The notes under the pieces are model-generated. The model was given only the letters and a program-made list of their open reading frames with translations. It was not told where the DNA came from and searched no databases. This document shows, in pieces, positions 407-12,286 of a DNA stretch of 12,689 bases. The translations under genes and the position numbers were made by a program. This stretch comes from Promethearchaeota archaeon (GTDB lineage: Archaea; Asgardarchaeota; Lokiarchaeia; Sigyniarchaeales; SOKP01): assembly GCA_004524535.1 (NCBI GenBank), contig SDNY01000105.1:1-12689 (forward strand), given 5' to 3'. How positions within the stretch are numbered: the first letter of the stretch is position 1; every line of letters starts with the position of its first letter.

Positions 407-2133
407 TTATTCAAATCCTCTTTTTATTTTAAACTTTATGCACTCTTTTATAAATGCTGTGTAAATTTTGGAAGGAGAGTATGGTCTACTTTTAAATTCT
501 GGGTGGAATTGAAGACCCAAACAAAAATGATCCTCTCGATTTAATTCTATGCTGTTTATAATTTTTCTTGTTTCATCTGTACTGGATACAATAAGACCAT
601 TTCTTTTAGCCTCTTCAGTGATATATTTTTCTTGTATATGATACCTATGTCGAAATCTTTCAATGATTTCTTCCTTATGATAAGCTTTATCTAACCGGGT
701 TCCCTCTTCCACAATTATTTTGAGACCTCCTAATCTCATTGTCCCTCCCTTTTCAGAGACTGCTTTTTGAGATTCTAACAAGTCTACTACTGGATGCGGT
801 GTGTCAGGATCAATTTCAGTGGAATTTGCACCTTCTAATCCAAGATATTTTCTACAAAACGCAATGAAAAACAATTGGGCTCCGAAGCATATACCTAAGA
901 AAGGAATTTTATTTTCCATAGCATATTCTGCTGATTTTATCATCCCCTCTACGGCTCGCTCTCCAAATCCAGGTGTTAATAAAATCCCATCACAATCCTT
1001 TAATTGATTTTCGATGTTAGTATCTTCAGTAATATTAATCATCTTGAGCTCAGCTTTATAGCCAAGATGTGCAGCAGCATGTTCTATAGCATCATTAATA
1101 GAAATATAAGAATCTGATATATTAAAATACTTACCAGGCATCCCTATTCTAACAGTTTCTTTAGCACCTTTGAATAATTCAACCAATTTCACCCATTCAG
1201 AATAATTTGTTATTTCATTATCTCCAGTAACTAATTTTGCTTTTAAATCTAATAAATCACACAAGGAATCGCCTAATTGTTGATCCTCAAATAAAAGTGG
1301 TATTTCATAAACCGTTTCGGCATCTGGATTAGAAATCACTGCTTCTGGAGGAACGTTGGAAAATAAAGAAATTTTTCTTCTGATATCTTCATCTAAAGCT
1401 TTTTCACTTCGACATATAACTATATCAGGCTGTAATCCTGCACTCTGAAGCATTTTTATTGAATGTTGTGTGGGTTTTGATTTTTGCTGACCGACTGCCC
1501 TCGAATAAGGGACTAAAGTAACATGTACGAATGCTGTATGCCTTTTTGGTAACTCTAATTTTAACTGTCGGAATGATTCTAAAAAGATACTGGATTCTAA
1601 ATCACCAACAGTACCCCCGCATTCAATAATCAATACATCTAAATTTTCGTTTTTCGCTATATCCATTAATCTTTCCTTAATCATATTAGTTACATGAGGT
1701 ATTATTTGTACTGTTCTTCCTAAAAATTTCCCTTTTCTCTCACTAAGAATTGTAGAAAGATAAATCTGACCAGATGTTATATTATGAGAAGGATCAATCT
1801 CAATTCCAAGAAATCTTTCGTATGTTCCGAAGTCCTGGTCGATTTCACTAATTTTATAACATCGTTCCTCTGATTCATCAACAGGCCTGAAATCCCAGAC
1901 GTTTTCAGTTATAAAACATTCCCCGTGCTCTATAGGATTGAGTGTTCCAGGATCTACATTTAAATAAGGATCAATCTTCACAGCAGAAATCTTGAAACCT
2001 CTAAATTGAAGAATCTTACCTAAACTGGCACTGACGACGCCTTTGCCTTTGCCTATTGTAGCGAAACGCTAAACAACAATATGCCGCTCATGACTCCGCC
2101 AGTTACAATTACAAATTTGCACTCATTCGTCAT
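407..2133 (-). CDS. pyrG: CTP synthase interrupted by a 32-nt insertion (2048-2079); segment 1 = 2133-2080, segment 2 = 2047-407; reconstructed length 564 aa
   Basis: Segment 1 reads MTNECKFVIVTGGVMSGI; segment 2 reads GKGVVSASLGKILQFRGFKISAVKIDPYLNVDPG... Downstream motifs: HGE..YERF, TVQIIPHVT, ECGGTVGDLES, KSKPTQHS, and the GATase triad GICFG (Cys) and FHPE (His, Glu). The track's GTG start at 1981 lacks the P-loop. Confidence 0.93.
2048..2079 (-). other. 32-nt frame-disrupting hairpin insertion in the pyrG P-loop
   Basis: Minus strand TTGTTGTTTAGCGTTTCGCTACAATAGGCAAA. Perfect core hairpin TAGCG-TTT-CGCTA. TAG stops occur in both the upstream frame (2055-2053) and the downstream frame (2071-2069). 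Confidence 0.85.
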
Positions 2134-2234: not shown

Positions 2235-3062
2235 TTAACGACCTTTAAAAATAGGGTCTTTTTTTGTTATTAATGATTTTGTGGCTGCCCTAAAATCAGA
2301 AGTTTTAAAAAGGGCTCTAAGACCTTCATTTTCCAAATCTAAAGTTCTTGAAAGGATTTCTCGGAAATAATTATGCATTGTCTTTTTCATTAATTTTAAT
2401 GATACGCTGGGTCCCTTTGGTGGTATTAATCTTAACGCTTTTTCTTTTACGTATGGCATTAATTCATCGGGCGGTAAGACTTTGTTAACTAAACCAAGTT
2501 CTTCAGCCTTTTGAGCAGTAATTTTATCGCCAAAATAACAAATCTCTTTCGCTTTTTGAAAGCCGATCAAAAAAGGTAGCATAAACGACGAGCTAAATTC
2601 AGACATGACAGCTCGACGCACAAAATAGAATCCCAACCAACTATCGTCATCATCGGACATATAAATCAGATCGGCAGCAACTAAAGGCATAGTGATACCT
2701 ATACCGACAGCTAACCCATTAATAGCAGCTATTACCGGCTTGGAAAAATCCCAAAACTTCATACATAAACGTTTTAGAGCAATATCCATCAAATCGAGTT
2801 CTTTCATAATCTCAGGAGGAATTGTTTTTATAAAATTCATGTTAAAATATCCCCCACTCGAAAATGCTCTACCTTCTGGATGTCCTGTCATGATTAAAAC
2901 TCTCGCATTTTTATCGGCTTCCATATCTGCTAAAATAGTCTCAATTTCCAAGAAAGTAACATGTGACATGGCGTTTCTTCTTTTAGGCCGATTAATTGTC
3001 ATGGTACAAATACCATTTTCCTCTTTTTCATAAATAATATCCTGAATATCTTCAATTTTCAT
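2235..3062 (-). CDS. Enoyl-CoA hydratase/isomerase (crotonase) family protein, paralog B
   Basis: Motifs TINRPKRRNA, AFSSGG, KPVIAAINGLAVGIG, ITAQKAEELGLVNKV. Confidence 0.93.
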   Translation of the reverse strand: MKIEDIQDIIYEKEENGICTMTINRPKRRNAMSHVTFLEIETILADMEADKNARVLIMTGHPEGRAFSSGGYFNMNFIKTIPPEIMKELDLMDIALKRLCMKFWDFSKPVIAAINGLAVGIGITMPLVAADLIYMSDDDDSWLGFYFVRRAVMSEFSSSFMLPFLIGFQKAKEICYFGDKITAQKAEELGLVNKVLPPDELMPYVKEKALRLIPPKGPSVSLKLMKKTMHNYFREILSRTLDLENEGLRALFKTSDFRAATKSLITKKDPIFKGR

Positions 3063-3097: not shown

Positions 3098-3919
3098 TTA
3101 TTTCCCTTTAAAAATGGGATCTTTCTTTGTTATTAATGATTTTGTCGCTGCTCTAAAATCAGAAGTTTTGATTGAGGCTTTATATCCTTCGTTTTCTAAA
3201 TCTAAAGTTCTTGAAATGATTTCTCGGAAATAATTATGCATTGTTTTTTTCATTAATTTTAATGATACGCTTGGACCTTTAGGAGGGACTAATCTTAAAG
3301 CTTGTTCTCTAGCGTATGGCATTAATTCATCGGCCGGTAAGACTTTATTAACTAAACCAAGTTGTTCAGCCTCCTGAGCCGTAATTTTATCGCCAAAATA
3401 GCAAATCTCTTTCGCTTTTTGAAATCCAAGATAAAATGGTAGAATAAAAGACATACTAAATTCGGGAATTACTGCTCGCTTGACAAAATAAAAGCCTAAC
3501 CAAGCTTCTTCAGCCATATAGATTAGATCCGCACCAGCTAAAGGCATAGTAATGCCACCACCAATGGCTAATCCATTTATTGCAACGATGATTGGTTTTG
3601 AAAAATCCCATAATTTCAAGCATAACTTTTTTTGCGCCATATCCATAAAATCGAGTTCTTTCTTTATTTCTGGAGGTATTGAGGTCATGAATTTAGCGTT
3701 ATAGTATCCCCCTGAGGAGAATGCATTGGCTTCTTTACAGCCCGTTATGATAAGTACCCTAGCGTTCTTATCTGCCTCCATATCATCAAGAACAACTTGA
3801 ATTTCTAAAAGAGATACGAAAGATAACGCATTTCTTCTTTCAGGCCGGTTAATTGTTAAGGTACAAATACCATTTTCTTCTTTTTCATAAATAAAATCTT
3901 GTATCTCATCAATATTCAT
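3098..3919 (-). CDS. Enoyl-CoA hydratase/isomerase (crotonase) family protein, paralog A
   Basis: Motifs TINRPERRNA, AFSSGG, KPIIVAINGLAIGGG, ITAQEAEQLGLVNKV; close tandem paralog of 2235-3062. Confidence 0.93.
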   Translation of the reverse strand: MNIDEIQDFIYEKEENGICTLTINRPERRNALSFVSLLEIQVVLDDMEADKNARVLIITGCKEANAFSSGGYYNAKFMTSIPPEIKKELDFMDMAQKKLCLKLWDFSKPIIVAINGLAIGGGITMPLAGADLIYMAEEAWLGFYFVKRAVIPEFSMSFILPFYLGFQKAKEICYFGDKITAQEAEQLGLVNKVLPADELMPYAREQALRLVPPKGPSVSLKLMKKTMHNYFREIISRTLDLENEGYKASIKTSDFRAATKSLITKKDPIFKGK

Positions 3920-9166: not shown

Positions 9167-10126
9167 TTATAATAGGCATAAAGCAAATGTTTGTTTTTCT
9201 GATAATGAACTAATAGAAACATCAGAAATCTGTTTTGAGATAAAATTATTTATTGGAACTCCTTTTTCAAATAGGTCGTTAAATTTTTCATTGAAAATTT
9301 GATAAATTTTTTCATTCCGAGTTATATACGAACCCATTAATTTGTTTGTAGGATCGAAACTTGGCTGAATTAATTCATCGTCCGTTAAGCTAAAATTGCT
9401 AAAATCTTCTTCCGTAATATGAACTTCAAGATTTTTAACTTCAAAATCAATAGGGTTAAAATTTTCAGTTAAAACTTTAAATTCCTTACTTTTTAATAAA
9501 GAAGTAATCAATTCATTATTAAAAACAACTTGTATCCTTAAATTCTTAAGGTTCTTTTTGATTTTATTCATACTTTCAATTAGATTTTCTTCGATTTCTT
9601 TAGACAAATTTGTTCTAATATAAGGAATTAATGGATTTTCATAGCGAATACCTGTAGCAATTTTGCATTTACTCTGCGTTAGAAAGGGATAATATATCTC
9701 ATCGATATTATTAATATCAAAGATAAGAAGTTCAACAGGCTCTTGAGTAGCCTCTATAGATTTTAATTTATATCTTTTAATGAACTCATCAAGAAAGGTT
9801 GTACATCGGTTTTTTTCATTTTCAAATTCGATCCTTAAGTCTTCAATTCTTTTATTGATAAGTTTTTGCCAAATTGGGATGATTGGGTTAGCTAAATTAA
9901 TTTTCATAGGTCTATCATAAATTTGGACTAAGTCTAAATCGCTCAATACTGAACAGATTTTATAGCCTCTTTTTAAAGTAAGATTATATTGAAGAGAAAC
10001 TTCTTTCAAATTTTCAATTTTTTTATTTTCCAATAAATGATGATAAATTTTTTCAATTCCTTTTTCAATTATACCTAATGAATTAAATAAATTTGATAAT
10101 TGAATAAATTCTTCCCGTATAGTCAT
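9167..10126 (-). CDS. Putative TrmB-like transcriptional regulator (N-terminal wHTH, C-terminal PLD-like/effector domain)
   Basis: N-terminal pattern LG...E.KIY..LL...LKEVS...LTLKRGYKI.S.L..LDLV....RP.....NP resembles TrmB wHTH domains, followed by a coiled-coil and an alpha/beta domain. Recognised by eye only. Confidence 0.6.
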   Translation of the reverse strand: MTIREEFIQLSNLFNSLGIIEKGIEKIYHHLLENKKIENLKEVSLQYNLTLKRGYKICSVLSDLDLVQIYDRPMKINLANPIIPIWQKLINKRIEDLRIEFENEKNRCTTFLDEFIKRYKLKSIEATQEPVELLIFDINNIDEIYYPFLTQSKCKIATGIRYENPLIPYIRTNLSKEIEENLIESMNKIKKNLKNLRIQVVFNNELITSLLKSKEFKVLTENFNPIDFEVKNLEVHITEEDFSNFSLTDDELIQPSFDPTNKLMGSYITRNEKIYQIFNEKFNDLFEKGVPINNFISKQISDVSISSLSEKQTFALCLL

Positions 10127-10127
10127 A

Positions 10128-10670
10128 TTATAAACTATTTAATTTTTCTTTCATATTTTGAATAATAAATTCGGCTAGAATACTAAAAGCTTTGTCAACA
10201 TTAACATTATTCATTGCTGAAATCTCAATAAAATCAGTAAATTTATTTTTCTCTGCTAATTGAACTCCATGTTCAGTAGGAATTTGCCGTTGAGTTTCAG
10301 CAAGATCTAGTTTTGAGCCAATTATAATGAGGGGAATTTCCCCTCCTTTTTGCCTGACAATAGAACTCCACTCTTGTATATTGTCTAAAGTAGAAGATCT
10401 CGTAATATCATATAACAAAAATGCTCCATTAGCACCAAGACAATATGTTGGTAAGAGAAATCTGAACCTTTCTTCCCCTCCCATGTCCCAAATCTGAAGC
10501 TTTATCTTTTTATTATTTATTTCGATTGTTTTTACGTGAAAATCGACTCCAATAGTCATTCTCTCGCTTGGATTGAATAAATTATAACAATAGCGTTTTG
10601 CGAATGAAGTTTTGCCCACATTCGCATCCCCAAGCAGGAGTATCTTGAAAGTATAGTCATAAGTTGGCAT
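10128..10670 (-). CDS. Rab-like small GTPase (Ras superfamily)
   Basis: G1 GDANVGKTS; G2/RabF1 TIGVDF; RabF2 KLQIW; G3 DMGG; G4 SKLD; G5 EISA; LYDIT. No C-terminal cysteine motif. Confidence 0.93.
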   Translation of the reverse strand: MPTYDYTFKILLLGDANVGKTSFAKRYCYNLFNPSERMTIGVDFHVKTIEINNKKIKLQIWDMGGEERFRFLLPTYCLGANGAFLLYDITRSSTLDNIQEWSSIVRQKGGEIPLIIIGSKLDLAETQRQIPTEHGVQLAEKNKFTDFIEISAMNNVNVDKAFSILAEFIIQNMKEKLNSL

Positions 10671-10827: not shown

Positions 10828-11460
10828 ATGTCAGAAGAAAAAAATAATTTTGAAGAATCCGATTTTGAAGGAGAATTAGATTATAAAATCGAAAATGTCG
10901 TAGGAACGGTAATAATGGAGATCGAAGAAAAGATGGATCTTAATCAAATTGCCCGCAAATATGAATCAACAGAATATAATCCGGAAAGATTTCCTGGTCT
11001 TATTATGAGAGTTTCTAATCCGAGAGCAACATTTCTTATCTTTTCTACAGGAAAAATGGTCGTCACGGGACTTAGAAAAGGGGAAGAGGCAGCTCAAGTA
11101 GTAGAAAAAGTAATGAAAAAAATTAAAAAAGCAGGAATTAAAGCGTCTAATCCAAAAATTACTATTCAGAATATTGTCGCAAGCGGAGATTTACACACAC
11201 ATGTAGATTTAAATTTAGCAGCGATAGTAATGGAATATGCCATGTATGAGCCAGAAGTATTTCCAGGGCTAATTTATCGCATGCAAGACCCAAAGACAGT
11301 TTTTTTAATATTTTCTACTGGTAGAATTGTCTGCACTGGAACTAAGAGTAAGGAAGTGGTAAGAGAAGCGGTTTTAAAATTGAATCATGAAATACGAGAA
11401 TTAGGAGTTGCTAAAAAAGATATGGCAGATTCCGATTATGAAGATGTTACATTTATTTAA
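10828..11460 (+). CDS. tbp: TATA-box-binding protein
   Basis: Two TBP repeats: IENVVGT..YNPERFPGLI..FLIFSTGKMVVTG and IQNIVAS..YEPEVFPGLIYR..FLIFSTGRIVCTG. Acidic termini as in archaeal TBP. Confidence 0.98.
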   Translation: MSEEKNNFEESDFEGELDYKIENVVGTVIMEIEEKMDLNQIARKYESTEYNPERFPGLIMRVSNPRATFLIFSTGKMVVTGLRKGEEAAQVVEKVMKKIKKAGIKASNPKITIQNIVASGDLHTHVDLNLAAIVMEYAMYEPEVFPGLIYRMQDPKTVFLIFSTGRIVCTGTKSKEVVREAVLKLNHEIRELGVAKKDMADSDYEDVTFI

Positions 11461-11524: not shown

Positions 11525-12286
11525 TTAAATCATTTCAAATTTCATATTAAATTTCTTATATAGATTGTCCAAACATTCCTCTTCCGATAATTCTATTGAA
11601 TATACTTTACTATATCCTATTTTTTGAGTGAATTTTATAAAATCTTTAGATATATCTGTTATATCTTCTTCATCGTATTTTAGATCGCTTAATTTTATCA
11701 AGAAAATAAAATCCTTAATCTTTTTAAGTTGATTATAATCTGAATCACTAATATACCTCGTATTTATTATATATCCTAAATTTTCTTGAGATTCAAAAGG
11801 TTCTAAAACTTCCATCGCATCGTTTAATGTTGGTATTGAGCCTAAAAATTCAAAACCTATATTAATATCTTCATCATATGCTTTTTTAGAGAGATTTTCA
11901 AGTCTTTTTATTGTTCTATTTATAACTCTCCATTTTGGTATTATGTTATCTTCAGATGAGAGTTCAAGTTTGGATGGATTAACTATTATTAGATTTGAAT
12001 CCAATTTATAGCATAAATTAAACATTTGCATTAAATTGTTAAGAACTTTCGTTTTATACTCTTTTTCTGAACACAAGGAAAAATCTTTTAAATGAAATAT
12101 GCTAAAAACTCGAAGATTGTAAATTTCTAATGTTTCTAAAATGTCTTTTAATTTAAGATTTTTAGATAGACTTCTTTTAATTTTTTTAAAATTTAACTCT
12201 ATCCCTTTAAAATCTCTGGAGAATTTTATAAATTCTAGTAATGACAGATCTTTACAAGAATTTTGATTTAAAGCTAATTTAATCAT
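11525..12286 (-). CDS. Sugar-phosphate isomerase/epimerase (xylose-isomerase-like TIM barrel) family protein with a degenerate metal site
   Basis: Pattern KLALNQ..., FKGIELN, INIGFEFLG, NLGYII, GYSKVYSIEL matches the AP-endonuclease-2/IolI-like fold. Confidence 0.7.
   Translation of the reverse strand: MIKLALNQNSCKDLSLLEFIKFSRDFKGIELNFKKIKRSLSKNLKLKDILETLEIYNLRVFSIFHLKDFSLCSEKEYKTKVLNNLMQMFNLCYKLDSNLIIVNPSKLELSSEDNIIPKWRVINRTIKRLENLSKKAYDEDINIGFEFLGSIPTLNDAMEVLEPFESQENLGYIINTRYISDSDYNQLKKIKDFIFLIKLSDLKYDEEDITDISKDFIKFTQKIGYSKVYSIELSEEECLDNLYKKFNMKFEMI

Follow-up and report, generated by a model that had tools for sequence, protein, structure and literature searches.

A putative bulge-helix-bulge mini-intron in the CTP synthase gene of a Lokiarchaeal genome and similar short inserts in its other genes

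How could an archaeon make CTP synthase from a gene that is broken by stop codons within its first twenty codons? The question is raised by pyrG in a 12,689-nucleotide (nt) stretch of DNA, hereafter the window, taken from contig C47 of a 3.66-Mb genome of the class Lokiarchaeia (G000; metagenome-assembled, 198 contigs, 99.1% complete). The Ras-family GTPase and TBP genes of the window fit this lineage label, as does a UQ_con gene from outside the window. pyrG lies on the minus strand (2133..407), where a hairpin insert of 32 nt (2079..2048) interrupts it after codon 18. We propose that the insert is probably a bulge-helix-bulge (BHB), or tRNA-type, mini-intron in the pyrG pre-mRNA, predicted from sequence to be spliced by EndA and RtcB. 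An earlier reading of this locus by itself (the original prediction) had suggested removal by non-canonical splicing among other possibilities; comparative evidence supports an intron and points to the more specific BHB geometry.

The exon-1 frame opens at ATG 2133, encodes MTNECKFVIVTGGVMSGI and continues as LLFSVSLQ before reaching a stop inside the insert. The exon-2 frame runs from 2047 for 546 codons, opens with GKGVVSASLG, and matches Pfam CTP_synth_N model positions 14-265 and a GATase domain. The insert carries one TAG in the exon-1 frame and another in the exon-2 frame. Excising exactly 32 nt gives the SGIGKG motif and a product of 18 + 546 = 564 amino acids (aa), in which Pfam model positions 13 and 14 are adjacent with no gap and the predicted exon-exon junction peptide is FVIVTGGVMSGIGK (...VMSGIGK...). 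The original prediction had the reading frames, the 564-aa product and the stop codons right, and the central hairpin folds as it described (10 pairs, -5.8 kcal/mol, intron nt 2-26). The alternative UUGUU/GGCAA pairing and the matched GGC and AUA codons that it noted are likewise present. Its proposed clamp between flanking coding sequences (ACUGGC 2103-2098 with GCCAGU 2029-2024) exists as a pairing, but the ACGGGC and ACAGGC of relatives face an unchanged GCCAGU, so that no compensation is seen. The parts of the locus, with helices, bulges and cuts as the BHB model places them, are as follows.

2080..2133, minus strand: pyrG exon 1, 18 codons (MTNECKFVIVTGGVMSGI), 3' end GGCAUA; N-terminus identical to that of the uninterrupted orthologue in the closest relative, G008
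2048..2079, minus strand: putative mini-intron, 32 nt, stops in both flanking frames; absent from the orthologues in G005, G008 and G004
407..2047, minus strand: pyrG exon 2, 546 codons and stop, with CTP_synth_N 14-265 and the GATase domain
2082..2085, minus strand: helix H, exon strand (GGCA), 4 positions, facing 2050-2053
2050..2053, minus strand: helix H, intron strand (GGCA), facing 2082-2085
2079..2081, minus strand: 5' bulge (U A / U), predicted cut between 2080 and 2079
2047..2049, minus strand: 3' bulge (A A / G), predicted cut between 2048 and 2047
2054..2078, minus strand: inner hairpin h', 5 base pairs (bp), UU bulge, 5 bp, UUU loop
2086..2087, minus strand: outer helix h, exon-1 strand, 2 bp, weak, facing 2045-2046
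2045..2046, minus strand: outer helix h, exon-2 strand, facing 2086-2087

Under the BHB rule used here, helix H forms between positions -6 to -3 of exon 1 and the equally numbered positions of the intron; a bulge comprises two nt before the cut and one after it, the outer helix joins exon to exon and the inner helix intron to intron. As a check, the rule was applied to tRNA-Pro(UGG) of the same genome, whose canonical 37/38 intron is 28 nt long, and it gave a helix H of 4, an outer helix of 7 and an inner helix of 6. BHB motifs are cut between the second and third bulge nucleotides, according to a passage of PMC2738675. The pyrG junctions lie two nt past a 4-position helix on both strands, as a BHB cut requires, and the two predicted cuts fuse GGC AUA to GGC AAA GGC in frame. 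In the window the flanking helices (inner 5 + 5 bp, outer only 2 bp) correspond to a relaxed HBh'-like form, a term used in the part of PMC5829648 consulted.

In the proposed mechanism, the last six nt of exon 1 (GGCAUA) and the last six of the intron (GGCAAA) would align as a short helix between two 3-nt bulges, an arrangement stacked on the 10-bp intron hairpin. A two-subunit EndA of the alpha-beta type would cut each bulge between its second and third nt, RtcB would ligate the exons to give the ...SGI/GKG... of a 564-aa CTP synthase, and the 32-nt intron would be released, probably in circularised form. We infer here that cleavage and ligation take place, which enzyme performs them and where exactly the cuts in the window lie. 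The genome encodes two EndA paralogues of 201 aa each, both with N and C domains, as well as RtcB; the EndA genes are in the regions of C100:31106-31336 and C84:30615-30863, and RtcB is on C101. The (alpha-beta)2 assignment of the host EndA is taken from PMC5829648, a passage of which describes Asgard archaea as having an (alpha-beta)2 EndA with an L1 loop that cleaves relaxed motifs.

The insert is found in three sequencing runs (X1, X2 and X3). In X2, from a second sample, a 548-nt contig covers 1683-2230 with zero differences, and in X3, from another study, a 233-nt contig covers 1926-2158 with 7 substitutions (97% identity) and no gap; both include the insert. Run X3 additionally holds a relative's contig that lacks it.

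Evidence from the rest of the class comes from a survey of 160 genomes, 134 of which have a pyrG match. Inserts of 30-32 nt occur in pyrG of 16 of these 134 and fall at two sites, with eight genomes at each. Site 1 (SGI/GKG) is that of the window, and its other seven representatives, all of genus g11, carry a 30-nt insert that is in frame but contains stops. At site 2 (DFGT/YERF), eight genomes from genera g1, g4 (4/4), g9 (2/2) and g10 carry a frame-breaking 31-nt insert; g1 is the window's own genus. Removing the insert gives back the canonical residues in 16/16 genomes, and the downstream frame is intact in each. Most other genomes of the class show one uninterrupted PF06418 match. The junction geometry described above recurs in the seven same-site inserts, the eight site-2 inserts and at least 14 other genes of G000.

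The original prediction had proposed that aligned pyrG genes of relatives might show same-site inserts with covarying stems, and the seven other site-1 genomes do. Paired cells make up 89% in the site-1 family, compared with 24-46% when partners are slid, and six pairs have changed on both sides (0/500 shuffles reach this), among them 5 of 9 inner-helix pairs. Helix H of the site-1 relatives has 4/4 standard pairs in four genomes and 3/4 in three, and it includes one compensatory change, from GGCA/UGCU to GGUA/UACU, made through a synonymous exon change. The outer helix is weak in all site-1 introns (69% of cells paired). The site-2 family gives a similar picture, with 86% of cells paired versus 33-40% with slid partners and 8/9 inner-helix pairs changed on both sides (again reached by 0/500 shuffles). 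Its helix H is GUAC/GUAA, with three pairs and a G.A that all eight introns have; the outer helix is 4-5 bp long, and the inner helix of 9 bp contains a single bulge and closes in a loop of 5 nt. Helix H of the window (GGCA/GGCA) has two middle Watson-Crick pairs with a G.A on one side and an A.G on the other, and each of these mismatch types occurs singly in site-1 relatives.

Several observations weigh against a BHB intron in the window. Its motif is degenerate and the weakest of its family (the introns in the S10 and CobA genes described below are better formed), and when 45 x 58 combinations of position and length were scanned locally, its crude score of 12 tied at about 7th-15th place. 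A rival cut after 2069, giving a 20-nt intron (2049-2068), scores higher, with a helix H of 4 that includes two G.U pairs, an outer helix of 5 and an inner helix of 3; this alternative uses the UUGUU/GGCAA pairing, is in frame and inserts LLFR into the SGIGKG motif. The BHB fold is also not the preferred one on energy grounds: it reaches -5.9 kcal/mol, whereas the minimum free energy (MFE) structure of the 59-nt stretch reaches -13.3 kcal/mol, and the same holds for relatives; the MFE structure of a 101-nt stretch is a different fold again from the BHB. Of the 14 pairs changed on both sides in the two families, 13 lie in the hairpin, and the sole compensatory pair in helix H also fits a plain extended hairpin. 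Contigs of X24, the sole RNA run listed (share 0.07), cover only 1670-1972 and 2183-2217, and none spans 1973-2182. Finally, coupling of transcription to translation would leave very little time to remove an intron located at codon 18. Hairpin energy was tried as an intron filter and is useless, since known introns span 0 to -13 kcal/mol.

Some matches in the class survey were considered as interrupted genes and set aside. Split PF06418 matches at model positions 62/64 occur in G012, G013, G038 and others with one open frame of ~570 aa; in the three that were fetched (L024, L026, L027) a single tblastn match runs through, and these have in-frame protein insertions, not introns. The truncated PF06418 matches of G068 and G062 end at contig ends, as do, judged from coordinates, those of G090, G136, G152, G042 and G079. 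One bin, G105, holds two pyrG copies (C37/L035 and C214/L048), of which a single one has the site-1 intron; this suggests a strain mixture or contamination.

The interruption of pyrG is accompanied by many others in the same genome. A de novo scan of the genome for BHB geometry combined with frame fusion returned 35,919 and 36,401 matches, with ~32,500 and 32,700 expected; such a scan is non-discriminating in this AT-rich genome, and alignment to G008 was therefore used instead. The comparison drew on 1.92 Mb of G008 (~90-93% DNA identity), 1.26 Mb of which aligned to G000. Among indels of 28-33 nt in this 1.26 Mb, 29 are inserts specific to G000 and 5 to G008. Over the first 787 kb, BHB geometry occurs at the indel in 11/20 G000 inserts of 28-33 nt, compared with 0/20 and 3/20 at displaced positions, while indels of other lengths show no enrichment (3/73, versus 14 and 11 at displaced positions). 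Apart from pyrG, 14 further G000 inserts (29-32 nt) lie within Pfam domains of intact G008 orthologues, and removal of each fuses two frames. Interrupted protein genes, pyrG included, thus number at least 15 in 1.26 Mb, the third of the genome that could be compared. No G008-specific insert of 28-33 nt combines BHB geometry with frame fusion in the 1.26 Mb aligned. The host genes of the 14 further inserts are listed below, with the residue at which the gene is interrupted where this was located.

Ribosomal protein S10
CobA/BtuR adenosyltransferase: aa 12, in the P-loop (GRGK/GKT)
UDP-glucose dehydrogenase: aa 16, in the GxGxxG loop
B12-binding protein: aa 19 (GLD/GHD)
NifU-like protein: aa 20
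BcrAD/BadFG ATPase: aa 23, in the GID/VGS motif
Aldehyde:ferredoxin oxidoreductase (AFOR): aa 51
Prismane/CODH-family protein: aa 69
UQ_con (E2): aa 83
MBL-fold protein: aa 121 of a 153-aa reading frame (G008)
Elp3-like radical SAM protein: aa 152
CdhD: aa 216
DeoC-family aldolase: aa 218
PmbA/TldD: aa 250

The insert positions in G000, given as contig and coordinate, are:

C135:24669, C56:20610, C81:7581, C113:6524, C113:12409, C65:33300, C144:21961
C100:12004, C123:17016, C98:11115, C8:3058, C16:3537, C115:18084, C180:283

Five more BHB-like G000 inserts, for which no host gene is given, are at C37:6285, C98:2691, C44:8356, C90:713 and C179:1154. Across the 15 host genes, pyrG included, the site was located for 14 inserts, 8 of which fall in the first 70 codons. 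Several inserts interrupt glycine-rich nucleotide- or cofactor-binding loops, SGI/GKG of pyrG among them. The location near 5' ends and in glycine loops could be a site preference or chance.

Genes for structural RNAs are affected too. The 23S rRNA of G000 (C174:55725) has a 30-nt BHB insert with a 4/4 helix H and an inner helix of 9 bp that is not in G008; the homologous site is L060:156, and L060:1-1187 matches positions 2019-2987 of the Rfam archaeal large-subunit rRNA. A tRNA on C186 has a similar insert of 29-30 nt, and G008 has an insert of its own beside that tRNA gene. ARAGORN finds only 12 tRNA genes in the whole genome, 8 of them intron-containing, despite 99% completeness, and for this reason most tRNA genes of G000 appear to be too interrupted for recognition.

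The inserts are not a repeat family, because they have no sequence in common and no second full-length copy exists. The 18 BHB-like G000 inserts share words of 9 nt at most, and in a blastn-short search of G000 the only full-length match of the pyrG insert is itself, the next best being 13-16 nt long. A miniature inverted-repeat transposable element or other repeated mobile element was rejected on the same grounds. The many such inserts elsewhere in the genome went unseen in the single-locus view of the original prediction. Fifteen interrupted genes in 1.26 Mb, relative to a genome at a synonymous divergence (dS) of 0.28, suggest ~40 or more genome-wide. We lean somewhat towards the view that this Lokiarchaeal lineage recently gained dozens of tRNA-type mini-introns in protein-coding genes.

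Excision at the RNA level need not depend on EndA. A hairpin or inverted repeat might trigger removal followed by sealing by RtcB, as analogues of which IRE1 with XBP1/HAC1 and the 'SOS splicing' of transposons in animals may be named, or a ribozyme activity of an unknown kind might be at work. The plain hairpin is indeed the strongest conserved feature, the BHB fold is not the thermodynamic optimum, and helix H of the window is poor, all of which such a system would accommodate. We nevertheless regard it as unlikely: the junctions lie two nt beyond a 4-position helix exactly as in the canonical tRNA intron of the genome, and the same 29-32-nt inserts occur in tRNA and 23S rRNA, which are classical EndA substrates. 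Against the ribozyme option, we know of no ribozyme intron as small as 30 nt.

The insert might instead mark a young pseudogene, inactivated recently, with CTP obtained otherwise. G008, at dS 0.28, lacks the insert, hence its gain is recent, and the BHB of the window is degenerate. pyrG is possibly dispensable in part of the class, as 26/160 genomes have no PF06418 match, some of them with a completeness of 95% or more. Immediately upstream of pyrG in G005 lies a DUF1846 gene (L003:2531-3712), and another CTP synthase may be in use in part of the class. In G000 itself, however, PF06418 has a single match, and neither a second pyrG, for which the original prediction had advised looking, nor a DUF1846/PyrJ-type CTP synthase was found when the genome was searched with the protein and with the family. 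Comparison of exon 2 with G008 (543 codons) gives a nonsynonymous divergence (dN) of 0.033 and a dS of 0.282, a ratio of ~0.12 that indicates purifying selection, and by this measure pyrG looks functional. The recent inactivating insertion that the original prediction had kept in view is made unlikely by this combination of a sole CTP synthase, an open 546-codon exon 2 and a low dN/dS. Further, the insert is kept in the 3% diverged strain of X3, the inserts of 16 genomes fall at just two sites with an intact downstream frame each time, and 14 other genes, including that for ribosomal protein S10, are likewise interrupted, so many simultaneous pseudogenes being implausible. A pseudogene is accordingly a quite unlikely account of the locus.

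Ribosome hopping between matched codons in the manner of T4 gene 60, the other alternative in the original prediction, is very improbable. Matched GGC (2085/2053) and AUA (2082/2056) codons and a hairpin are present, but a GGC/GGC hop gives SGKGKG (Ile to Lys) and an AUA/AUA hop gives SGIGKGKG (two extra residues), neither of which is canonical. The take-off codons are not followed by a stop (the next codon is AUA after GGC and UUG after AUA); in frame, a stop is reached only 8 codons on. No matched-codon pair gives the canonical protein in the seven site-1 and eight site-2 inserts, whereas one splice rule does, and a ribosome cannot bypass the same inserts in rRNA and tRNA. That the insert is an assembly or sequencing artefact, a further suspicion of the original prediction in view of a metagenome-derived genome of 198 contigs, is hardly credible, since the identical X2 and 97%-identical X3 contigs span it without a gap (at the contig level) and fifteen other species-level genomes of the class have similar pyrG inserts at either site.

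A few observations concern the surroundings of pyrG. The neighbouring open reading frames (ORFs) at 2235-3062 and 3098-3919 were considered as a second split gene and rejected, being two complete enoyl-CoA hydratase paralogues. At ~391, downstream of the pyrG stop, 26 nt present in G008 are missing in G000; the site is intergenic and not BHB-like. The Ras-family small GTPase gene (10128-10670) adjoins a 319-aa ORF (9167-10126) that has no Pfam match, and the TBP gene adjoins this pair on the opposite strand (regions 9167-10670 and 10828-11460). A 253-aa ORF at 11525-12286 has no Pfam match either.

The practical consequence is that gene callers will report pyrG, the S10 gene and at least 13 other genes of G000 as broken or split, so that such inserts, wherever present, would introduce errors into pseudogene counts and metabolic reconstructions of Lokiarchaeia. 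The new point is the presence of many putative mini-introns in one Lokiarchaeal genome that are not in the protein genes of a close relative, over the compared stretch. In the literature found, BHB splicing of coding sequences is confined to crenarchaeal cbf5, while here core metabolism and a ribosomal protein of one Asgard archaeon appear to depend on it; the literature search, which did not extend to supplements that might list cases, found no description of BHB introns in Asgard protein-coding genes. If our reading is true, routine mRNA splicing by EndA and RtcB would belong to the normal gene expression of an Asgard archaeon, and sequence-unrelated introns of 29-32 nt, often near the 5' end and in glycine-rich loops, would suggest that an insertion mechanism is active and prefers certain sites. 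G000 and G008, the latter with no such protein-gene insert in the compared stretch, would then form a natural experiment on intron arrival, a matter that the preprint bioRxiv 10.64898/2026.10.13.758758 leaves open for tRNA introns. Protein-gene introns removed by a protein endonuclease and RtcB in the archaeal group closest to eukaryotes would bear on the origin of intron-bearing genes, and would be relevant to the origins of non-spliceosomal mRNA splicing of the XBP1/HAC1 kind, with no descent implied.

Four known systems invite comparison. In phage T4 gene 60, a gap in the coding sequence is passed by translational bypassing between matched codons. pyrG resembles it in having a short gap that contains a hairpin and stops, with matched codons on both sides; it differs in that no stop directly follows the take-off codon, the product would be non-canonical, relatives have no matched-codon solution, and like inserts occur in rRNA and tRNA genes. 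XBP1/HAC1 mRNA is processed by the endonuclease IRE1 and the ligase RtcB, and the XBP1 intron is 26 nt long. RtcB and XBP-1 are both mentioned in a passage of PMC8718801. The shared features are a tiny, non-spliceosomal, frame-shifting mRNA intron, two structured cut sites and, as predicted for pyrG, sealing by RtcB. IRE1, however, recognises twin stem-loops in a regulated reaction on one mRNA, and no IRE1-type enzyme is implied for pyrG.

The cbf5 pre-mRNA of Crenarchaeota reportedly contains a BHB intron, in work attributed to Watanabe (2002) and Yoshinari (2006). The pyrG insert is like that of cbf5 in being, as proposed here, a small intron in a coding sequence with a relaxed BHB and predicted cuts between the second and third bulge nt, in its tie to a hetero-oligomeric EndA of relaxed specificity, and in its presence or absence among related lineages. 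Splicing of cbf5 was shown by cDNA, whereas the pyrG intron is predicted here from DNA sequence. The two differ also in that the pyrG host encodes a core metabolic enzyme in Lokiarchaeia (Asgard) and is not alone, at least 15 protein genes being interrupted in the third of the genome that could be compared, while a passage of PMC2738675 (Yokobori 2009) places BHB introns of archaeal coding sequences in cbf5 of Crenarchaeota, namely Desulfurococcales and Sulfolobales. Parts of PMC11291895 and of the preprint cited above, which reports repeated gains without sequence similarity, describe abundant tRNA introns in Asgard archaea. The pyrG insert is of the length class of the genome's own tRNA and 23S rRNA inserts (28-30 nt) and has the same geometry, and here too gains are repeated without sequence similarity between the introns. 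Where those passages deal with tRNA genes only, the proposed pyrG substrate is an mRNA, in which cutting must also keep the reading frame.

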